Below, piece by piece: positions 2,635-48,923 of a stretch of DNA of 64,000 nt. The stretch spans positions 15,918-79,917 of the forward strand of contig CAYGGZ010000005.1 of NCBI GenBank assembly GCA_964349765.1, in the 5' to 3' direction. Source of the stretch: an uncultured Bacteroidales bacterium (GTDB lineage: Bacteria > Bacteroidota > Bacteroidia > Bacteroidales > JAAYJT01). The notes beneath the pieces were generated by a model. The model made no database searches. It saw nothing but the letters and a program-made list of their open reading frames with translations, and had not been told where the DNA came from. The stretch's first letter is position 1, and every line of letters starts with the position of its first letter. The translations under genes were made by a program, and so were the position numbers.

Positions 2635-3859
2635 AGTAGTAAAGTGTAGAGCAGTTTTCGCTGCGGAAAGTGCGTTTGGCGAAGTCGTGAATAGTATCCG
2701 GGGTAACTTCGCAGTAACGTTCAAGTTCCCGGTTAATCATTGAAGCATCGCCAAGCAATTCAAAATGACTAATATTAATAGCTTTTTCAACTACTTTGAT
2801 TTCGGAGAACAGCAAAAGCGATTCAACCCTGTTTTTCACTTTTTGTATTTCTCTTGGTTCGCACAGATGGTATGTTAGTTTTGCGACCTCTTCTTCAATT
2901 GCTGAGTTAGCTTGGGTCATATTAACTCCTTCCATTACTTTGCCCGAGACTACAAAAAGGCCCGGGTCGTTGCTTCCAGTTATGAAGGCGTTGATATCGC
3001 TGAAGAGTCGGCGTTTTTTTACCAGAGAAACATAGAGGCGTGCTGAGTCGCCAGCTGAAAGAATGTCGCTTGTGAGATCGGCCGTATAATAGTCGTGGTT
3101 GAGCCGCTGGCCAATATGCCAGGCCTTGTAAATGGCATGGTGTGGTACTGGTTTTTCGACTTCGAGGAGGCGGGCTTCGGCTTGAACAGGCTCCTGTGGC
3201 AGCGTACGCAGTGGCTTGACTCTGGCCGGGATGTCGCCAAACCATTTCTTGCAAAGCTCCTTTATCTCTTCAATAGTTACTGGCCCGGCAAGGGTAAGTA
3301 TAGCATTTGAAGGATGATAAAAGCGACGGAAAAAATCTTTCACATCACTCATGGCGGCTGATTCGATATGATTGATGTCTGCCCCTATAGTTGACCAGCG
3401 ATACGGATGAACCTTGTACGCCAATGGGCGCAGAAGCAACCATGCATCGCCATACGGCTGATTGAGATGTGTTTGACGAAACTCTTCTTTGACGACGTTT
3501 TTTTGAACCTTCAGGCTTTTCGCTGAGAACGCAAGCCCCATCATCCTGTCGGACTCAAGCCAAAAGGCAGTTTCAATATTTGGTTTGGGAACCGACAAAT
3601 GATAGCATGTAATATCGTTGGAGGTAAAAGCATTGTTTTCGCCACCTACTTTCTCAAGCGGTTCATCGTAGCGGGGGATATTTACCGATCCGCCAAACAT
3701 CAGGTGTTCAAACAGATGGGCAAAACCCGTACGATTGGGATCTTCGTCGCGTGCACCTACATCATACAAAACACTCATTGCCACTATGGGGGTTGTAAAA
3801 TCCTGATGAACAAGAACCTTCAACCCATTGGGCAGTTCAAAGCGCTCGAAATTTATCAT
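2606..3859 (-). CDS. M16 (pitrilysin/insulinase) family zinc peptidase
   Basis: 417 aa with an N-terminal GFAHLFEHLMFGG (HxxEH zinc motif). Co-oriented with a second M16 gene. Confidence 0.85.
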   Translation of the reverse strand: MINFERFELPNGLKVLVHQDFTTPIVAMSVLYDVGARDEDPNRTGFAHLFEHLMFGGSVNIPRYDEPLEKVGGENNAFTSNDITCYHLSVPKPNIETAFWLESDRMMGLAFSAKSLKVQKNVVKEEFRQTHLNQPYGDAWLLLRPLAYKVHPYRWSTIGADINHIESAAMSDVKDFFRRFYHPSNAILTLAGPVTIEEIKELCKKWFGDIPARVKPLRTLPQEPVQAEARLLEVEKPVPHHAIYKAWHIGQRLNHDYYTADLTSDILSAGDSARLYVSLVKKRRLFSDINAFITGSNDPGLFVVSGKVMEGVNMTQANSAIEEEVAKLTYHLCEPREIQKVKNRVESLLLFSEIKVVEKAINISHFELLGDASMINRELERYCEVTPDTIHDFAKRTFRSENCSTLYYYAKNLRYDN

Positions 3860-41434: not shown

Positions 41435-42322
41435 TTACATTCGTATAAATCTGGCAACCACGCCCAAAGGTAGTTGACGGCCACCCCGGTCGCTAACAGT
41501 TAGCTCTCCGTACTCAACGGTAGTGTTATTTCCGGCAATCGGCTGAACGAGATTAGCTGCCACGAGCGAAGAAAACCCCATTGAGTAAAGATTCAAAACA
41601 ATCATAGATGGTTGATCAACAAGTAAATGCTGACATAGATCCAGCAATTCGCCAAGAGAATCTTCGAGTATCCATTTCTCGCCGCCGGCTCCTCTGCCGT
41701 ATGCAGGAGGGTCGAGTATGATTGCATGATACTTGCTTCCGCGTCGAACCTCTCTGTGTGTAAAGCGAAGGGCATCTTCAGCCAACCAACGCACTCCTTC
41801 CAATCCGGAAGCTTCCATATTGTTGCGCGACCAAGTGAGTACCGACCTTACTGAATCAACATGCACCACCGTTGCACCGCCAGCAAGCGCTGCCAGAGTG
41901 GCTCCGCCGGTGTACGCAAACAGGTTGAGCACCTGCGGTTTTGACACCTTAAACTGCCTTAAATGATGAAAAATGTAATTCCAATTGTTGCTCTGCTCAG
42001 GAAAAACGCCAACATGGCCTGAAGAAGTAAGTCCAACTCTTAACCTAAATTTTAGTTCGCCTGATGAATATTGGATAAACCACTGCTCAGGACTTCCTTT
42101 TTTTAGAATCCAGTTTCCTCGTTCTGATCCTGTTTCAGGTTTTTCCCGTGCGAACCGGGCATGATGCAACCTCTCCCATTCGGAGCTATCAAGAGCCGGT
42201 TTCCAGATTGCTTGTGGCTCGGGTCGCCACACAATATATTCACCGAACCTTTCCAGTTTAGAAAAACCACCACTGTCAACCAGTTCGTAATCACGCCAAT
42301 CCCTGATTTCGGATATGTGCAT
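41435..42322 (-). CDS. class I SAM-dependent RNA methyltransferase (RlmI/PF10672-like)
   Basis: VLNLFAYTGGATLAAL (SAM motif I), IILDPPAY(G)RG. Length and architecture resemble the RlmI-like catalytic domain. Confidence 0.7.
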   Translation of the reverse strand: MHISEIRDWRDYELVDSGGFSKLERFGEYIVWRPEPQAIWKPALDSSEWERLHHARFAREKPETGSERGNWILKKGSPEQWFIQYSSGELKFRLRVGLTSSGHVGVFPEQSNNWNYIFHHLRQFKVSKPQVLNLFAYTGGATLAALAGGATVVHVDSVRSVLTWSRNNMEASGLEGVRWLAEDALRFTHREVRRGSKYHAIILDPPAYGRGAGGEKWILEDSLGELLDLCQHLLVDQPSMIVLNLYSMGFSSLVAANLVQPIAGNNTTVEYGELTVSDRGGRQLPLGVVARFIRM

Positions 42323-42747
42323 TTCTGATTAGAGTTTTTAATAAGGGTGCAAAGATGAGCATTAATTGTTAACAATTCTGAAAACAAACTACAAGCTATC
42401 CTGCAAAGGATTGTATTCATAGCAAAACGGAAGGTTTTAGTATGGGATTAACAAGTTACAAGCAAGCCTAAAAGACGACACCACAACCATCAACCTGACA
42501 CCTAAACCTCGAACTTTGACATCCTGACCAGACTTTTCAGTCAACCTTAACACGGCAGACAATTTCGCTGTATCTCGACTCCGACCAGCAGACCAACTTG
42601 ACGAAACACAAGCCAACCCCTCTACAAAGCCAAAAGAGCCACTTTTTTCCTACGCACCAAAGACGGTAGAGACAGCAAATACGCAATTTGTAGAGCCCAT
42701 ACTTAAATTTATTTTCATAAAAAGTTTGATAATTAGAAAACTTTGAC

Positions 42748-42755
42748 TACTTTTG
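42748..42755 (+). promoter_or_regulatory. candidate -7 box (TAnnTTTG) for the Type I R-M operon
   Basis: tacttttg sits 25 nt upstream of the TTG start of the half-hsdS ORF, with tttgac just upstream. A second match, taaatttg (42773-42780), overlaps that start. Confidence 0.3.
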
Positions 42756-42779
42756 TAGAGTCATTACAAAGGAATAAAT

Positions 42780-43346
42780 TTGAAAACCTTAATTAAACAT
42801 ATCACAAACATCCAAACCGGACTCTTTGCAAAGCCCTCTGGCAGTGGCAATGTTGTGTATTTACAATCCAAGCATTTTGACGAAAACGGACAATTGCATG
42901 CTGTTCTTCACCCTGATTTGGTGGCTGAGGGGATTTCTGAAAAGCATCTGCTAAGAGACGGTGATGTGATTTTTGCAGCGAAGGGTTATAAAAACTTTGC
43001 AGCCGTTTTTGAAAACCACAACGAACCTTCCGTTGCTTCTACCTCCTTCTTTGTTATAAGACCAACCGACCAAAAAGTGTTGTCTAAATATTTGGTTTGG
43101 TTTCTAAATAACCACACCACACAAACACTTTTAAAAGGCCAAGCCATCGGAACTTCAATTCCTTCCATTTCAAAACAGGTTTTAGAAAATCTGGAAATTA
43201 CAGTGCCGAGCATTGAAATCCAAAAGGCGATTCTGAAAATCACAAAACTCCGCAACAAGGAGAAAGCTTTGAAGCAGGAATTAGAACTTTTAAGAGATAG
43301 AAAAATAAATCAACAGCTATTACAGGCTATAAACTATGAGAGATAA
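42780..43346 (+). CDS. hsdS: Type I restriction-modification specificity subunit, half-size (single TRD plus one conserved helix)
   Basis: 188 aa. TRD-like body (GDVIFAAKG...SFFVIRP...YLVWFLN...GTSIPSISK..LENLEI.VPS.EIQ..I) and a coiled-coil tail. Only a TTG start is available; the last codons lie in an inverted-repeat arm. Confidence 0.65.
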   Translation: MKTLIKHITNIQTGLFAKPSGSGNVVYLQSKHFDENGQLHAVLHPDLVAEGISEKHLLRDGDVIFAAKGYKNFAAVFENHNEPSVASTSFFVIRPTDQKVLSKYLVWFLNNHTTQTLLKGQAIGTSIPSISKQVLENLEITVPSIEIQKAILKITKLRNKEKALKQELELLRDRKINQQLLQAINYER

Positions 43347-43355
43347 GATATGAGA
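43335..43355. repeat. left inverted-repeat arm of four-helix-bundle cassette 1
   Basis: tatgagagataagatatgaga matches the reverse complement of the CATATCT array (tatgagatatgagatatgaga) at 19 of 21 positions. It contains the hsdS-half stop codon and the cassette gene's ATG. Confidence 0.8.
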
Positions 43356-43718
43356 CAAAGTAAATCCATATTAAAAGACAAATCATTTGCGTTTGCGATA
43401 GCTATTGTGAGGGCATATAAAACTCTTGTTGAAGAGAAAAGAGAATTTGTGATGAGCAAACAATTGTTGCGTTCAGGAACTTCAGTTGGTGCAAATATTC
43501 GTGAGGCAAAAAATGCTGAAAGCACAAATGACTTCATCCATAAACTTGGCATAGCCCAAAAAGAATGTGATGAAACTTTGTACTGGCTTGAATTGCTCAA
43601 GAAAACTGAATTCCTTAATGAACAAACTTTTTTAGAACTCTCAGACCAAGCCAATCAAATCCTTAAAATGATTCGAAGCACCATCTTAACCATCAAACAA
43701 AAAAATCTCAAATCTTAA
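43350..43718 (+). CDS. four helix bundle protein (23S rRNA intervening-sequence protein family, PF05635)
   Basis: KSFAFAIAIVRAYKTL....EFVMSKQLLRSGTSVGANIREAKNAES..DFIHKLGIAQKECDETLYWLELL is the family signature. Confidence 0.9.
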   Translation: MRQSKSILKDKSFAFAIAIVRAYKTLVEEKREFVMSKQLLRSGTSVGANIREAKNAESTNDFIHKLGIAQKECDETLYWLELLKKTEFLNEQTFLELSDQANQILKMIRSTILTIKQKNLKS

Positions 43719-43722
43719 ATCC

Positions 43723-43760
43723 CATATCTCATATCTCATATCTCATATCTCATATCTCAT
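43723..43760 (+). repeat. heptanucleotide tandem repeat (CATATCT x5.4) ending in the hsdM start codon; right arm of cassette 1
   Basis: Direct reading: catatct catatct catatct catatct catatct cat|g. The ATG of hsdM (43759-43761) is formed by the last partial unit. Confidence 0.95.
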
Positions 43761-45456
43761 GGCTAAAATAACTCAGAAAGACATCAACGATGCAGTTTGG
43801 AAAGCTTGCGACACCTTTAGGGGAAGCATTGACCCAAGCGTTTACAAAGACTATGTACTTACCATGCTATTCCTAAAATATCTCAGCGATGTGCATGACG
43901 ATAAAATGGAAAGCTACCTGAAAAAGTACAATGGCGATATGGAACGTGCCAAACGTGCCATGCAGCACGAACGATTCATTGTACCGGAGCATAGCCATTT
44001 TAAGTTTCTGTACGATTCTCGGAACGAAGCCAATATTGGTGAACTCATTAATATTGCTTTGGCAGATTTGGAAGAAGCCAACCGTGAGAAATTGTACAGT
44101 GAAGACGGTGCAGGTATTTTCCAGAACATTGACTTTAACAGCAGCAAGCTGGGCGAACCCAAAGACAAAAACACCCGACTGAAAAACCTCTTGCTCGATT
44201 TCAACAAGGATGCTTTGAACCTTCGTCCTTCCCATTTGGATGGTAACGACATTATTGGGGGTGCTTACATGTTCCTCATTGAAAACTTTGCCAGTGATGC
44301 AGGGAAAAAAGCGGGAGAATTTTTTACACCAAAAGAAGTATCTACGCTTATTGCCAAACTCACCAAATCAAAACCCGGTTCACGCATAAGTGATCCAACC
44401 TGCGGTTCGGCTTCACTCTTGATAAAAGCAGGCGAAGAAGTTGGTTCAGATAATTTTTCACTTTACGGACAAGAAGCAAACGGCAGCACCTGGGCATTAG
44501 CTGTGATGAATATGTTTTTGCATGGCTTCGATAACGCTACTATTCGCTGGGGCGATACCATCCGCAACCCCAAACTAAAGGAAGGCGATACGCTGATGAA
44601 GTTTGATACCGTAGTGGCAAATCCGCCATTCTCTTTAGACAAATGGGGAAAGGTAGAAGACAAGGAAGGCGACAAAACCACCATCAGCTACGACCCCGAA
44701 ACCGACAAATACAACCGTTTTTGGAGAGGCGTGCCACCCAAGAGCAAAGGCGACTGGGCATTTATCAGCCACATGATAGAAACCTTGAACGAACATGGAA
44801 AAGCGGGTGTGGTAGTGCCACATGGTGTATTGTTTCGTGGCAGCAGCGAAGGCCGCATACGCCAACGCACCATTGAAGAAAACCTGTTGGAAGCAGTAAT
44901 TGGCTTACCTGCCAACCTGTTTTTTGGTACAGGTATTCCGGCTGCAATCTTAGTTTTTAACAAGCAAAAAAGCAGCAACAACGTATTGTTTATTGATGCC
45001 AGCAAGCACTACGAAAGTGTCAAAAACCAAAATAAGCTGCGATCTTCAGATATTGAGCGAATAGTAGGAACTTATGAACTCTTGCAGAGCTATGAACTAG
45101 GAGATATAAGTTATGAGATGCTGGAGAAATCAGGAAAATGGAAAGTGGATGGTGATTATTTGATAAGCCTTCGTTCAGGTAGCAAACTACTCAAATCCGA
45201 ACTCGAAATCTTAAACAACAAAAATCTCAAATCTCATCCCTCATATCTCATATCTCCGAAATACAGCTATGTAGCTTCCCCTGAAGAAATACAGGTAAAC
45301 GACTATAACCTGAACATTCCACGCTATGTGGACACTTTTGAAGAAGAACCCGAAGTGGATATTGCTGCGGTGCAAAAGGAGATTGAACAACTGGAAGGCG
45401 AATTAGTGAAAGTGCAAAGTGAGATTGAAGTTTATTTAAAACAATTAATAAATTAG
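43759..45456 (+). CDS. hsdM: Type I restriction-modification DNA methyltransferase subunit M (N6-adenine)
   Basis: HsdM_N helical domain; motif I DPTCGSASLL; motif IV VANPPFS; C-terminal NDYNLNIPRYVD. At 565 aa it is longer than usual because of an insertion at about 45091-45257. Confidence 0.95.
   Translation: MAKITQKDINDAVWKACDTFRGSIDPSVYKDYVLTMLFLKYLSDVHDDKMESYLKKYNGDMERAKRAMQHERFIVPEHSHFKFLYDSRNEANIGELINIALADLEEANREKLYSEDGAGIFQNIDFNSSKLGEPKDKNTRLKNLLLDFNKDALNLRPSHLDGNDIIGGAYMFLIENFASDAGKKAGEFFTPKEVSTLIAKLTKSKPGSRISDPTCGSASLLIKAGEEVGSDNFSLYGQEANGSTWALAVMNMFLHGFDNATIRWGDTIRNPKLKEGDTLMKFDTVVANPPFSLDKWGKVEDKEGDKTTISYDPETDKYNRFWRGVPPKSKGDWAFISHMIETLNEHGKAGVVVPHGVLFRGSSEGRIRQRTIEENLLEAVIGLPANLFFGTGIPAAILVFNKQKSSNNVLFIDASKHYESVKNQNKLRSSDIERIVGTYELLQSYELGDISYEMLEKSGKWKVDGDYLISLRSGSKLLKSELEILNNKNLKSHPSYLISPKYSYVASPEEIQVNDYNLNIPRYVDTFEEEPEVDIAAVQKEIEQLEGELVKVQSEIEVYLKQLIN
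45091..45257 (+). repeat. decayed four-helix-bundle-cassette-like insertion, in frame within hsdM
   Basis: The left end tatgaactaggagatataagttatgagatg is homologous to 47141-47172. The right end aaaaatctcaaatctcatccctcatatctcatatctcc is ~90% identical to 43701-43740 (the cassette 1 end), with the TAA stop replaced by CAT. Confidence 0.7.
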
Positions 45457-45482
45457 CCATTTCGAGCGCAACCTCGAAATGG
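45457..45482 (+). terminator. perfect 10-bp hairpin immediately after the hsdM stop
   Basis: ccatttcgag (45457-45466), loop cgcaac, ctcgaaatgg (45473-45482). There is no clear T-run, so its function (terminator or processing site) is uncertain. Confidence 0.4.
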
Positions 45483-45502
45483 TTCAATATAAAGTGATTA
45501 TT

Positions 45503-46342
45503 ATGGCTAAAGAAAAAAAATCAACCATTGTTGTTCAAGGATTGGCAGTTAACATTATTAGCCAATCTCAAGTCGATTATATATCAATAACAGATATTGC
45601 ACGGCACAGAGATGCCGACCGCAGCGATTATATTCTTCAGAACTGGCTACGAAACCGAAGTACAATAGAGTTTATTGGGCTTTGGGAACAACTTCGAAAT
45701 CCATATTTTAATTCCATCGAATTCGATGGAATTAAAATTATGTCGGGGTCAAATAGCTTTTCACTGACACCAAAGAGATGGATAGAAAGCACCAACGCTA
45801 TAGGCATCGTCTCCAAAACAGGAAGATATGGAGGCACATTTGCACATAAGGACATAGCCTTTGAATTTGCCTCATGGATAAGCGCCGAATTCAAAATGTA
45901 CCTGATTGTAGAATTTCAACGCCTGAAGGAAGACGAAAACCGGAGGCTTTCACTGGAATGGAACCTGAACCGCACCTTATCCAAGGTAAACTATCGCATC
46001 CATACCGATGCCATAAAAGAGAATATTATTCCCGCCAACACCACTAAAGAGCAAGAACATTTTATTTATGCCAATGAAGCCGATGTTCTGAATGTAGCTC
46101 TCTTTGGGCAAACAGCAAAGCAATGGCGAAAAACCAACCCCGACAAGGAAGGCAATTTAAGGGATGATAGTACGGTAGAGCAATTGTTGGTAATGGCCAA
46201 TCTGGAAAGCATGAATGCCGAATTTATCCGAATGGGCTTGCCACAAGGTGAAAGACTGAGAAAACTCAATGCCATTGCCATTCAGCAACTAAAATCGTTG
46301 GTGGGAAATGTGAATCTTAAAAAACTGGGAGATGGAATATAA
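45503..46342 (+). CDS. KilA-N domain-containing protein
   Basis: From MAKEKKSTIVVQG..DYISITDIARHRD.....ILQNWLRNRSTIEFIGLWEQLRNP.F......GRYGGTFAHKDIAFEFASWISAEFKMYLIVEFQRLKEDE. This family is commonly embedded in Bacteroidota Type I R-M loci. Confidence 0.85.
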   Translation: MAKEKKSTIVVQGLAVNIISQSQVDYISITDIARHRDADRSDYILQNWLRNRSTIEFIGLWEQLRNPYFNSIEFDGIKIMSGSNSFSLTPKRWIESTNAIGIVSKTGRYGGTFAHKDIAFEFASWISAEFKMYLIVEFQRLKEDENRRLSLEWNLNRTLSKVNYRIHTDAIKENIIPANTTKEQEHFIYANEADVLNVALFGQTAKQWRKTNPDKEGNLRDDSTVEQLLVMANLESMNAEFIRMGLPQGERLRKLNAIAIQQLKSLVGNVNLKKLGDGI

Positions 46343-46512
46343 TACGAATTATCATGCAGTTTCAGATCACTTAGAGATTACTCTCGAGGATATCATGCAA
46401 ATCAATGAACCCAAGCCATTAAAAACACCTAAAAAGAAAAAGTAGTCTGAACCATGATTCATCTGATTTTTATGATGGTCATGATTCTCAAACAAAAAAT
46501 CAAAGCAATCAC

Positions 46513-47814
46513 ATGTTTCAAAAAAATCATAGTGCAGACAATAACGAAATTCCGAGTGATTGGGATGTTAAGCATTTTGAGGATGTAGCGGATATTGATA
46601 AGGAGAGCTTGAATGCTAATACTCCAAATGATTACGAGTTCGATTATATCTCTCTTTCTGATGTTGATTCTGTTGATTTTAATATAGAAACAACAAGGCA
46701 AATATTTGCTACAGCACCATCGAGGGCAAGAAGAATTGTTAAACAAGGGGATATTTTAATGTCCACTGTTCGCCCAAATCTTCAAGGTTTTGTCCTTTTA
46801 AGAAATGAGGTTAAAGATTTAATTGCTTCAACTGGTTTTGCTGTAATTACAGCAAAAAAGTGTAGTAAAGAATATCTATTTCAATATTTATTCAGTTCAG
46901 GCATTCAAAAACAATTTTATCACCTGTTGGTTGGTTCCAATTATCCTGCTATAAACTCATCCGATGTAAAAAAACTCAAAATCCCCCTCCCCCCACTCCC
47001 CGAGCAAAAAGCTATAGCCCAAGTGCTAAGCACGGCCGATGCCGCCATCCACACCACCGAAAAACTTATTGCCCAAAAAGAACTGCAAAAAAAATGGCTG
47101 ATGCAGCAATTGCTTACGGGGAAGAAACGGCTTTTTTCTAGAGATGAGTTAGGAGATATGAGTTATGAGTTGAAGAAAGTAAAATTTACAGATGTGTTTC
47201 AAATTATGAAATCTTACTCTATTTCTAGAGAAGGGTTAAGTGATATAGTTGACGAAAGCTCAGTTTATTGTATTCATTATGGAGATATACATGCATTTTA
47301 CTCCAATGAGTTCTTAGATTTTTCTTCTCAAAAAGGTATCCCATCTTTAAAAAATGAAATATTGATTAACCCTAAGGACTTTTTACAGGATGGCGACATA
47401 CTAATGGCTGATGCATCTGAAGATTATGAAGGTGTTGGTGAGATAGTAGAAGTAACAAACTTAAAAGATAAAAAAGCAATTGGAGGATTACACACAATTG
47501 TGCTTAGGCCTAGCAAAAAAGTTATATCACCAAAATACACAGCTTATCTTTTGTCCAGCGAAATAGTAAAAAATGAACTAAGAAAAAAAGCTACTGGCAC
47601 ATCAGTTTATAGCGTTTCCAAGTCAACACTTCATAACTTATCTCTCATAATTCATAACTCCTTAAAAGAACAAACCGCCATTGCCAAGGTACTGCAAGCG
47701 GCAGATAAAGAAATCAGCCTGCTCAAAGCCAAAGCAGATAAGTTGCAGGAGCAGAAAAAGGGATTGATGCAGCAGCTACTCACCGGTAAAGTGAGATTGA
47801 AAATTGAAAACTAA
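46513..47814 (+). CDS. hsdS: Type I restriction-modification specificity subunit S (two TRDs)
   Basis: 433 aa. Two conserved regions, LPPLPEQKAIAQVLSTADAAI...LMQQLLTGKKRL and LKEQTAIAKVLQAADKEI...LMQQLLTGKVRL, separate two AT-rich TRDs. Confidence 0.95.
   Translation: MFQKNHSADNNEIPSDWDVKHFEDVADIDKESLNANTPNDYEFDYISLSDVDSVDFNIETTRQIFATAPSRARRIVKQGDILMSTVRPNLQGFVLLRNEVKDLIASTGFAVITAKKCSKEYLFQYLFSSGIQKQFYHLLVGSNYPAINSSDVKKLKIPLPPLPEQKAIAQVLSTADAAIHTTEKLIAQKELQKKWLMQQLLTGKKRLFSRDELGDMSYELKKVKFTDVFQIMKSYSISREGLSDIVDESSVYCIHYGDIHAFYSNEFLDFSSQKGIPSLKNEILINPKDFLQDGDILMADASEDYEGVGEIVEVTNLKDKKAIGGLHTIVLRPSKKVISPKYTAYLLSSEIVKNELRKKATGTSVYSVSKSTLHNLSLIIHNSLKEQTAIAKVLQAADKEISLLKAKADKLQEQKKGLMQQLLTGKVRLKIEN
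47141..47172. repeat. inverted-repeat arm at the 5' edge of hsdS TRD2
   Basis: gagatgagttaggagatatgagttatgagttg. 25 of 29 positions are identical to the hsdM-internal left end (45092-45120). Its inverted partner is at 47632-47661. Confidence 0.7.
47632..47661. repeat. inverted-repeat arm at the 3' edge of hsdS TRD2
   Basis: cataacttatctctcataattcataactcc. Its reverse complement ggagttatgaattatgagagataagttatg matches ggagatatgagttatgag (47151-47168) at about 15 of 18 positions. Confidence 0.65.
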
Positions 47815-47825
47815 ACAAAATTGAT

Positions 47826-48677
47826 ATGGCAAAAAAATTACAACGAATCGCAATCGCCTATGACTTTGATGGAACTTTGGCCCCAGGCAATATGCAGCAG
47901 CATTCTTTTATTCCAAAACTAGGTGTTGATAGCGGTACTTTTTGGAAGGAGGTAAAAGCTATCGCAAAAGAAAACGACATGAATGAGATATTGGCATACA
48001 TGCACCATATGATTAAAAAGGCTGATGAAAAGAATATCCCAATAACTAAAAAAGCTTTTGTTGAACATGGCAAAGGGATGCCTATGTTTCCTGGTGTTGT
48101 CGAATATTTTGAAAAGATTAATGAATATGCCAAATCAAAAGAATTGGTTGTAGAACATTATATTATTTCTTCAGGCCTTCGAGATATTCTGAAAGGAACA
48201 CCAATTCATAAAGAATTTGAAATGGTTTTTGCTTCTGCTTATAAGTATAACGTTAACGATGTTGCAGAATGGCCGGCATTAGCAATTGACTATACTAACA
48301 AAACGCAATTTCTATTCAGGATAAATAAAGGAATTAAAAACGCTTGGGATAATGAAAGCATAAATAAGTTTATGCCAGAAAATGAAAGACCTATGCCATT
48401 TAACCGAATGATTTATTTGGGTGATGGTGAGTCTGATATTCCGGCAATGAAAATGATAAATTTTCAAGGTGGGAAATCTATTGCCGTTTATAATCCTGAT
48501 ACTAAAACAAAAGCTGGTAAAAAAGCTAAAAAGATAACTCAAGAACTTGTTTCACAAGGTAGGGCAAACTACGTAGCTCCTGCAGACTACTCTGAGGGAA
48601 GTTCACTTTATAAAATCATTCAGTTGTGCATAGATTCAATGGCTGCGGAAATTGAATTGCAAAATTTTAAAAAGTAA
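47826..48677 (+). CDS. HAD superfamily phosphatase-like protein
   Basis: HAD motif I IAYDFDGTLAP (DxDxT), motif II ISSG, motif IV YLGDGESDIPAMK; 283 aa. Lies between hsdS and hsdR. Confidence 0.7.
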   Translation: MAKKLQRIAIAYDFDGTLAPGNMQQHSFIPKLGVDSGTFWKEVKAIAKENDMNEILAYMHHMIKKADEKNIPITKKAFVEHGKGMPMFPGVVEYFEKINEYAKSKELVVEHYIISSGLRDILKGTPIHKEFEMVFASAYKYNVNDVAEWPALAIDYTNKTQFLFRINKGIKNAWDNESINKFMPENERPMPFNRMIYLGDGESDIPAMKMINFQGGKSIAVYNPDTKTKAGKKAKKITQELVSQGRANYVAPADYSEGSSLYKIIQLCIDSMAAEIELQNFKK

Positions 48678-48680
48678 CAT

Positions 48681-48920
48681 ATGGCACGCAAAGAAAGACA
48701 TGTAGTTCCCAATTCCGAAAAAGGCGGTTGGGATTCAAAAAGAGAAAATGCAGAAAGGGCTTCCAAGAATTTTGAAACCAAGAAAGAAGCTATGGACTGG
48801 AGTCGTGAAAAAGCAAAACAGGAGAAATCTGAATTGATACCACATGGAAAAGATGGAAAAATTCAGAATCCGAATAGCTATGGTAGTGATCCCAATCCAC
48901 CTAAGGATAAAAACAAATAG
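48681..48920 (+). CDS. DUF2188 domain-containing small protein
   Basis: 79 aa; HVVPNSEKGGWDSKRENAERASKNFETKKEAMDWSRE.AK....ELIPHGKDGKI matches the DUF2188 pattern. Confidence 0.7.
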   Translation: MARKERHVVPNSEKGGWDSKRENAERASKNFETKKEAMDWSREKAKQEKSELIPHGKDGKIQNPNSYGSDPNPPKDKNK

Positions 48921-48923
48921 TTT

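Follow-up and report, generated by a model that had tools for sequence, protein, structure and literature searches.

The nature and origin of ribosomal RNA (rRNA) intervening sequences have been in question since the early 1990s, and we know of no role that has been assigned, outside diversity-generating retroelements, to the "four helix bundle protein" genes of the PF05635/TIGR02436 family. In Coxiella burnetii, the 23S rRNA intervening sequence holds an open reading frame (ORF) of this family, S23p, within a 28-bp terminal stem that is cut mid-stem by ribonuclease III (RNase III), and two or three tandem GACAGAT heptamers, the number of which varies by strain, directly precede the ATG (PMC4990558). 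Heptamers likewise form one arm of a hairpin at the Haemophilus influenzae gene hmw1A, where an (ATCTTTC)n array is transcribed and the hairpin undergoes RNase III processing (PMC12721329), and further heptanucleotide repeats have been recorded in Xanthomonas (GGGAATC, including 70-75 arrays arranged as convergent inverted pairs), Nostoc (GGGGAYT) and Beggiatoaceae (TAACTGA) (PMC4692102; PMC4679880). Here we describe, in a 64,000-nt stretch of DNA from an uncultured Bacteroidales bacterium (contig CAYGGZ010000005.1; hereafter the window), a small cassette in which a gene of the S23p family is enclosed by inverted arms of tandem heptamers within a type I restriction-modification operon. A cassette class composed of inverted heptamer arms and a PF05635 ORF very probably exists, and on balance we favour viewing its members as promoterless, intervening-sequence-type cassettes of operons, the equivalent, in protein operons, of 23S rRNA intervening sequences that bear an ORF.

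The element in question, cassette 1, stands on the plus strand between a half-size hsdS (42780-43346; PF01420), encoding one target-recognition domain and a conserved helix, and hsdM (43759-45456; PF02384, PF12161), which follows immediately downstream. Its four-helix-bundle gene, gene 1 (43350-43718), encodes 122 amino acids (PF05635, TIGR02436; S23p/Avd-like). The left arm (43326-43357) is made of the imperfect heptamers CTATGAG AGATAAG ATATGAG, and its core, 43335-43355, reads tatgagagataagatatgaga. The right arm (43703-43760) is a period-7 array of 8 units containing five perfect CATATCT units (43723-43757) followed by CATG; the perfect units are embedded in a longer imperfect array (43703/43705-43760) of 8 copies with 89% matches. 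By hand count, 19 of 21 positions of the left arm are complementary to the CATATCT array, and a repeat search of 42600-55600 returned the same arm pair as 20 nt at 90%, 28 nt at 82% or 30 nt at 80% complementarity. The 21-bp inverted repeat reported around gene 1 by the first-pass annotation, which had been made from the sequence alone, is thus present with the coordinates, sequence and degree of match it described. The last codons of the half-hsdS run into the left arm, within which that gene stops, at TAA (43344-43346), and gene 1 starts, with its ATG at 43350, three bases after the TAA. The right array spans the last codons and the stop codon of gene 1 and has the hsdM ATG (43759) as its end. 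These ORF positions confirm that the left arm supplies one stop and one start codon, and the right arm the start of hsdM, as had also been proposed.

The complementarity of the cassette 1 arms is confirmed as real and does not reflect chance. Scored without gaps (+1/-2), the two flanks reach an inverted score of 15, while 1500 equally spaced pairs of the same geometry elsewhere in the window have a maximum of 12 and a 99th percentile of 10. A fortuitous match between AT-rich, low-complexity stretches could be suspected, given that both arms are of low complexity and that the island in which they lie is AT-rich (38% G+C, against 42.6% for the whole window), but the cassette 1 score lies above all 1500 background pairs, the pattern recurs at a second gene of the window and at most of 75 + 14 + 10 independent loci, and the signal is specific both to period 7 and to each locus's own partner arm. 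On the strength of the window background and of this replication elsewhere, chance is rejected, its probability being negligible.

Membership of PF05635 and TIGR02436 is defined by a match above the curated cut-off across the full ~110 residues, and both family genes of the window have such matches. For PF05635, with a cut-off of 33.8 bits, the score of gene 1 is 100.1 bits, and for TIGR02436, with a cut-off of 24, it is 111 bits, so that the arms do enclose one gene of the 23S rRNA intervening-sequence protein family, as first suggested; gene 2, considered further below, scores 96.1 and 108 bits, respectively. The two proteins are 46% identical, and a tblastn search found exactly two PF05635 genes in the window. 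The closest solved structure to gene 1 by sequence similarity is 2RLD, with five chains (E=5e-34). Genes of this family have been annotated in very many genomes, and one search returned about 8000 close relatives. The family motif, published as GxxRxxxSxxxNxxE (PMC3936711), is represented in gene 1 by R41-S45-N49-E52 within LLRSGTSVGANIRE, the leading G being absent. The family is homologous to Avd, the accessory protein of diversity-generating retroelements, with which it shares a fold and family neighbourhood (Avd being PF05635-like) and probably a pentameric assembly of four-helix bundles (PMC10053308; PDB 2RLD). The context differs from that of Avd in that a Pfam scan of the ten main ORFs of the island detected no reverse transcriptase domain. 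In 42600-55600, the repeat search turned up heptamer arms together with short matches at chance level and gave no sign of a diversity-generating retroelement, although template/variable pairs were not specifically sought.

A scan with a 14-sequence alignment, limited to one genome per species, yielded 80 loci with 50-83% identity, mostly from Bacteroidota, and 75 complete loci were quantified. Most carry tandem heptamers upstream of the gene and the reverse complements of these downstream; the upstream units include TTATGAG, GATGAAT, AATTGAG, AATTGTT, GTGATGA, GGTTATG and AGTTTAG, and copy numbers of 3-5 are common. At each flank of the 75 loci, self-matching at period 7 reaches a median score of 10, compared with 3 for background sequence; periods 4-6 and 8-10 give no signal. 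When the flanks of one locus are compared in inverted orientation, their complementarity has a median of 14 against 7 for background of the same spacing, with 68% of loci above the background's 99th percentile. The corresponding figure falls to 8 when an upstream flank is compared with the downstream flank of another locus (own arms better, p=5e-15) and to 8 again when a locus's own flanks are compared in direct orientation (inverted better, p=6e-10). Because own arms surpass the arms of other loci, the unit can be said to vary between loci while the arms within a locus agree.

Beyond the Bacteroidota, ten regions were retrieved by tblastn searches against plasmids. Arms of the same anatomy occur on plasmids of Nostoc (AATTCGT/ACGAATT and AATTCGC/GCGAATT), Planktothrix (CCCCAAT and CGTAAAT) and Euhalothece (CTGGTCA x13), as well as Dolichospermum, Gloeocapsa and Chlorohelix (Chloroflexota), and on a plasmid of Monoglobus (Bacillota) the cassette lies between hsdS and hsdR. 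The cyanobacterial arms CCCCAAT, CTGGTCA and AATTCGT resemble what we take to be classical units of the short tandemly repeated repetitive (STRR) sequences. On the Treponema saccharophilum plasmid pTS1, (CTCTCCG)n stands on both sides of the gene, mainly in direct orientation. Of eight viral contigs, clear arms are present on two and distant arms on one, and the other five are without arms. Taken together, inverted heptamer arms surround most of the sampled relatives, in at least five bacterial phyla, an association that is strong but not absolute. The first-pass annotation had made its reading depend on whether other PF05635 genes share such repeats, and gene 2 and most relatives do have arms. 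No literature linking the gene family to flanking heptamers was found beyond the Coxiella paper; coverage of the search was incomplete, and a prior description is possible.

Three loci show further peculiarities. The Treponema plasmid bears an extra complementary (GGAAAGN)n block further upstream. At another locus (L164), long (GGTATGA)n arrays at 368-468, 2578-2645 and 3327-3437 of the retrieved sequence, all in one orientation, extend over 3 kb, and only one of them adjoins a four-helix-bundle gene, which has no right arm. On the Pseudanabaena galeata plasmid pPg_04, the gene has csx2 and cas1 as its neighbours, and 35-nt repeats, equal to five heptamers in length, stand on either side of it, echoing the record of the family in cas loci (PMC3936711).

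Placement of the cassette within host operons is consistent among relatives. The upstream neighbour is co-directional with the gene at 68 of 74 loci and the downstream neighbour at 61 of 74, figures that lead us to reject frequent inversion of the cassette between its arms. Gaps to the neighbours have a median of ~30 nt, and the arrays make up essentially the whole spacer. Of the upstream units, 98% contain a stop codon, 52% contain ATG and 48% show a stop/start overlap of the ATGA type, compared with 86%, 27% and 15%, respectively, after shuffling; in the commonest family, as read from the flanks, a TTATGA / TCATAA pair gives ATG at one end and TAA at the other. Since the arms carry the stop and start codons of the neighbours, host frames stay intact and the cassette would be read from the host transcript. 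The cassette, on our reading promoterless, is placed exactly in the short junction of two co-transcribed genes. The neighbours of the 74 relatives are diverse and mostly housekeeping genes, including short-chain dehydrogenases, amidohydrolase/nitrilase, mevalonate genes, parts of metH and hisA/F; the link to restriction-modification is therefore incidental, and a function specific to restriction-modification is rejected.

Compared with intervening sequences of the Coxiella type, known also from Leptospira and others, the cassettes have an ORF of the same family (S23p, PF05635), complementary termini that enclose this ORF in a stem (predicted, in the case of cassette 1) and tandem heptamers of variable copy number. 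The heptamers of Coxiella lie upstream of the ATG and within the stem, while the polymorphic array of the window lineage is the right arm. Unlike in Coxiella, the host of the cassette is a protein-coding operon and not helix 45 or helix 25 of 23S rRNA: cassette 1 stands between half-hsdS and hsdM, and none of 20 related loci checked lies in an rRNA gene. The cassette ORF is, moreover, intact and under purifying selection, whereas that of Coxiella is decaying, and the cassette arms also carry the neighbours' stop and start codons. The cassette may be regarded as an element of the intervening-sequence type that resides in protein-coding operons and has inverted heptamers as its general architecture. 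The STRR, Xanthomonas and Beggiatoaceae repeats are similar in being intergenic tandem heptamers, often beside start codons, and differ in that many of their arrays are solitary and that the papers describing them make no mention of S23p or four-helix-bundle genes.

Comparison of restriction-modification loci with and without the cassette, which had been proposed as a check, was made possible by a metagenome scan with hsdM that recovered 80 half-hsdS/hsdM-related loci of 75-90% identity. At 66 of these, no PF05635 gene lies beside hsdM, and in the 48 such loci that retain, under a strict filter, a complete half-hsdS within the contig, the half-hsdS runs almost directly into hsdM; the empty junctions displayed measure 8-11 nt and contain no heptamer array (for example ...ataaaaTAAatatcATGGCT, and typically ...aacgcaataaaaTAAatatcATGGCTAAAATAACT). 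The remaining 14 loci have a cassette at exactly the half-hsdS/hsdM junction. These 14 cassettes represent at least five lineages, with 84-88%, 60-70% or 50-58% identity to gene 1 and some closer to gene 2, and each lineage has its own heptamer family and inverted arms. Because heptamers are present at the junction only when the gene is present, the arms can be said to accompany the gene, and the occurrence of several cassette lineages at one site implies that the junction has been occupied repeatedly. In one nominally empty junction (L146), the spacer aaagagaaaa matches the left arm of the cassettes of L113, L126 and L151, and looks like a deletion footprint left when a cassette was lost via recombination between two ATGA(A) starts.

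Traces of movement are otherwise sparse, and support for mobility is indirect. A 10-nt direct repeat, TAAATGAAAA, lies at both ends of the cassette of L113; alignments of filled against empty sites reveal no consistent target-site duplication, several loci sharing just ATG(A). All-against-all identities of ORFs and flanks, with one genome per species, disclosed no near-identical copies in different contexts that would mark recent transposition: the best ORF pairs share at most 86% nucleotide identity, mostly at orthologous sites, and at such sites (for instance in seven Flavobacterium species) ORF and flanks are equally diverged. A few similar cassettes do occur in unrelated contexts (L072/L082 and L037/L072). 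No transposase or recombinase was detected in a Pfam scan of the ten main ORFs of the island. Mobility is thus best described as real on long time-scales and not demonstrably recent. Of the earlier suggestion of a small non-autonomous mobile cassette, the cassette stands, given its presence or absence at one junction and arms that accompany the gene, while "mobile" has to be qualified in the ways just described.

Sequence evolution differs between the parts of cassette 1. The ratio of nonsynonymous to synonymous substitution rates (dN/dS) of gene 1 against its relatives is 0.03-0.08, with synonymous sites saturated (dS above 1); the protein is under strong purifying selection, and the saturation indicates that the cassette at the half-hsdS/hsdM junction is old. 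Despite this divergence, the window, L006-L015, L097 and L104 share one and the same left arm, gctataaactatgagagataagatATG, a degree of conservation that exceeds the need of the seven overlapping codons. The right array varies within the species: the window and L002 have five perfect units, L001 has four, and three assemblies have contigs that break inside the array. In sister lineages, the right arm has ~8 mixed units (L097) or ~16 (L096, in which the left array is expanded as well), while the right arms of L006-L015 consist of degenerate units alone, and in the cassette of L113, a different lineage, the right arm holds ~15 copies of a 14-mer. These data show that slippage alters the length of the arrays. 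Across relatives, distance between units correlates with distance between proteins (Mantel r=0.28; 0 of 999 permutations as high), showing joint inheritance of arms and ORF.

The proposal that a long stem could form in the transcript is supported by predicted RNA folds of 43320-43775, in which the arms close the cassette in both the minimum free energy (MFE) and the centroid structure (z=-1.6 overall). The MFE structures contain 27 left-right pairs for cassette 1 and 32 for cassette 2, and over the 75 loci the median number of cross pairs is 25 for own arms against 17 for swapped arms (p=0.018). At gathering thresholds, Rfam models matched a single tRNA in the window and had no hits in 20 related loci, ruling out a known RNA family. 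In the mechanism that we infer, the two arms would pair in the polycistronic RNA to give a stem of ~20-30 bp closing off the cassette; this stem would be a substrate of RNase III, as are the Coxiella intervening sequence and the Haemophilus hmw1A leader; cutting would free the cassette mRNA from the operon transcript; and the length of the array might tune both the RNase III step and the start of hsdM translation. RNase III cutting is established for Coxiella and would extend to the cassette by analogy. The hmw1A leader offers a second parallel, having a heptamer array of slippage-variable copy number in a long hairpin just upstream of a start codon (PMC12721329); it differs in that the partner arm is G-rich and non-repeat, no gene is enclosed and a single virulence locus is concerned in place of a cross-phylum cassette. 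Pairing of the arms in RNA followed by RNase III processing would, by these analogies, be the most likely role of the arms, and the RNase III step itself is put forward tentatively, at somewhat less than even odds.

Several observations weigh against this interpretation. L031, L066, L081, L164, the Treponema plasmid and five of the eight viral contigs have no arm on one or both sides, or have direct arrays. Evidence of movement is limited, as noted above, by the lack of a clear target-site duplication and of near-identical copies and by divergence that is usually equal in cassette and flank. The left arm is invariant and the right arm hypervariable, contrary to what strict pairwise co-selection predicts, and the swapped-arm folding control is only modestly lower. 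Mismatches within the arms comprise 57 G:U and 58 A:C, without the excess that would mark selection on the sense RNA, so that a case for RNA-specific selection built on G:U excess came to nothing. Lastly, arm pairs also occur in frame inside hsdM (see below), where the message would be lost if RNase III cut efficiently. Even so, we consider the intervening-sequence-type cassette of operons to be the somewhat better than even reading of the data as a whole.

The serious rival is a role for the arms in DNA, to which we assign roughly one chance in four. By this account the arms are the terminal inverted repeats of a non-autonomous transposable cassette mobilised by an enzyme encoded elsewhere, or are kept alike by template-switching during replication (quasi-palindrome correction), and the RNA stem is a by-product. 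Presence and absence of several cassette lineages at one junction, the similar cassettes in unrelated contexts and the direct repeat at the ends of the L113 cassette all fit such an account, as do the equal G:U and A:C mismatches, which a strand-symmetric process would give, and the arm pairs within coding sequence; an insert in hsdM shares the heptamer family of the neighbouring cassette in the window, L096, L097 and L098, suggesting local copying of DNA. The cassettes resemble miniature transposable elements with inverted repeats (MITEs) and integron cassettes in being short, flanked by inverted repeats, promoterless, transcribed by the host, sited at gene junctions and polymorphic for presence. 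They possess the terminal inverted repeats of MITEs but lack a near-identical multi-copy family, and they are likewise without a conserved terminal sequence, a clear target-site duplication, an integrase or a single site of the attC type. The heptamer unit varies so widely by lineage that no one transposase recognition sequence is conserved; target-site duplications are not consistent, the island encodes no transposase or recombinase, near-identical copies were not found in the sample of one genome per species, and ORF and flanks are equally diverged at orthologous sites; and the strong bias towards the sense orientation in operons would need the extra assumption of selection for expression.

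Other roles for the heptamers are less probable. Avd of diversity-generating retroelements binds nucleic acids, and the arrays might by extension be DNA or RNA binding sites of the encoded pentameric four-helix-bundle protein, or of another protein, through which the cassette or its neighbours are autoregulated. Nucleotide conservation of the left arm beyond coding need, the correlation of heptamer unit with protein clade and the frequency of arrays of 3-5 copies would suit this idea; shared descent explains the correlation equally well, however, the two arms are different sequences on RNA, array length, between 2 and more than 15 units, shows no obvious constraint, and no specificity-determining residues were identified, leaving the proposal improbable. 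Slightly less probable again is that the right array is a contingency repeat that switches or tunes hsdM by phase variation, complementarity to the left arm being incidental. Copy number is indeed polymorphic within the species and between sister lineages (4 against 5 units, with contigs ending in the array), the array abuts the hsdM ATG, and heptamer arrays upstream of hmw1A grade expression (PMC12721329). Yet the array sits between the gene 1 stop and the hsdM ATG, outside any ORF, where no reading frame can be shifted, although its length may conceivably act through RNA structure; similar inverted arrays flank PF05635 genes in housekeeping operons, in which there is no reason to expect phase variation; where related hsdM genes lack the cassette, the array is missing as well; and the left arm would be left unexplained. 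Finally, the arms could serve an hsdS shufflon as recombination sites, through which the half-hsdS and a full-length hsdS downstream exchange target-recognition domains. This possibility was raised by the 88% complementarity of the cassette 1 left arm to 47631-47656, where the second target-recognition domain of the full-length gene ends, and by the left- and right-type stretches that flank this domain, but we judge it very unlikely: the island has no recombinase gene, the half-hsdS and hsdS share one orientation, such that inversion would flip hsdM and most of hsdS, and arms also surround PF05635 genes with no hsdS nearby.

Cassette 2, the other such cassette of the window, lies between hsdR and a YgjP-like gene and has inverted arms built from a heptamer unlike that of cassette 1. 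Its left arm (54245-54275, plus strand; AATTGAG AATTGAA AATGGAG AATTAAG AAT) begins in the hsdR stop codon and ends in the ATG of gene 2 (54274-54627, plus strand; 117 amino acids; PF05635, TIGR02436), and its right arm (54641-54672, plus strand) reads ATTCTCC ATTCTGC ATTCTGC CTTCTCC. With an inverted score of 11, its flanks rank among the highest 0.13% of the background pairs from the window. The YgjP-like ATG (54627) overlaps the gene 2 stop (TGATG), and the right arm is translated as an N-terminal extension of the YgjP-like gene. Save for two trivial two-copy hits, all period-7 arrays of the 64 kb are within the restriction-modification island.

Arms of the same kind are found inside coding sequences of the island. 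Within hsdM, an in-frame segment of 61 amino acids (45076-45258, plus strand) replaces 15 amino acids of relatives, between ...TY and KYSYVA. Its boundaries are formed by arms of the cassette 1 heptamer family, left-type at 45087-45123 and right-type at 45207-45256. Inserts of the ATGAGAT family are present in the window, L096 and L097; L098 has an in-frame right-type arm of the TTATGAG/GATGA family; other heptamers are used in L103 (GTGAAAA / TTTTCAC) and in L154/L156 (GGAGAAT, TGATAAT / TTATCAA, TTCTCAA); and 45 hsdM relatives have no insert. The insert arms covary and folds pair them, and in L097 the coding right arm has expanded in 21-nt (7-amino-acid) steps to give NLKSQIS repeats. Wherever insert and junction cassette are both present, they share a heptamer family within the locus, except in L103; because the insert uses the family of the neighbouring cassette, local copying is suggested. 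The claim that the insert is an internally deleted four-helix-bundle gene was dropped, since its 78% match to the 3' end of gene 1 consists of the two right arms, which belong to one heptamer family. Inserts of other hsdM genes share a different small core, GKW..D..GDY/F.

Similarly, the full-length hsdS contains two in-frame heptamer stretches on the plus strand, one of left type (47140-47172), which follows the central conserved region and precedes the second target-recognition domain, and one of right type (47624-47660) at the end of that domain. The 88% complementarity already mentioned relates cassette 1 left-arm positions 43328-43353 to 47631-47656, 4.3 kb away. These stretches could be scars of a cassette that once lay between two former half-hsdS genes, or could mark a site of domain exchange. 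A weaker candidate arm pair lies within the YgjP-like gene (54943-55150, plus strand), with a GATGAAT-type left arm, recognised by eye, at 54943-54968 and an ATTTATC/ATCATT-type right arm at 55120-55150. The pair encodes VHDELRVMNEG and LSLITHHLSL, in place of variable parts of the protein.

The intervening-sequence-type cassette of operons offers a concrete model for the nature and origin of rRNA intervening sequences and may account for the surplus of heptanucleotide repeats that has long been noted in bacterial genomes. It would also define an insertion class that is tolerated in frame inside proteins, with arrays growing in 21-nt steps, and a hypervariable array set against the start codon of a type I methylase could grade expression of the methylase. 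A bolder generalisation, which we hold to be speculative and rather unlikely, is that inverted heptamer arrays with a four-helix-bundle ORF constitute one ancient, pan-bacterial family of self-inserting cassettes, that the 23S rRNA intervening sequences are members that landed in rRNA, that many over-represented heptamers are arms or scars, and that the Avd-like protein helps to move or maintain the cassette. If this were true, the scars would include the cyanobacterial STRR sequences, the paired GGGAATC arrays of Xanthomonas and the in-frame heptamer-coded peptides of hsdM, hsdS and the YgjP-like gene, and the Avd-like protein could act, for example, via an RNA intermediate that is excised and closed by the stem.

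The type I restriction-modification island as a whole extends over ~42700-55400, between a gene for an S-adenosylmethionine-dependent methyltransferase (41435-42322, minus strand) and an RNA methyltransferase-like gene (55898-56716). Additional island genes encode a KilA-N protein (45479-46342), a HAD-like phosphatase (47826-48677) and a Schlafen AlbA_2/HATPase_c_4 protein (48924-50585). Relatives of the island have a RhuM-like gene after hsdM, and some have a DncV-like nucleotidyltransferase in place of hsdS. Between the Schlafen/AlbA_2-like gene and hsdR lie 433 nt of non-coding DNA (50586-51018) in which (TTAAGAGAGAA)x3 occupies 50597-50630 and six copies of a AATTCTCCAAA-like motif, arranged in pairs, occupy 50831-51006. 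There is partial complementarity between the two sets of motifs (GAGAGAATT / AATTCTC); the sets may represent a decayed arm pair or operator sites of hsdR.

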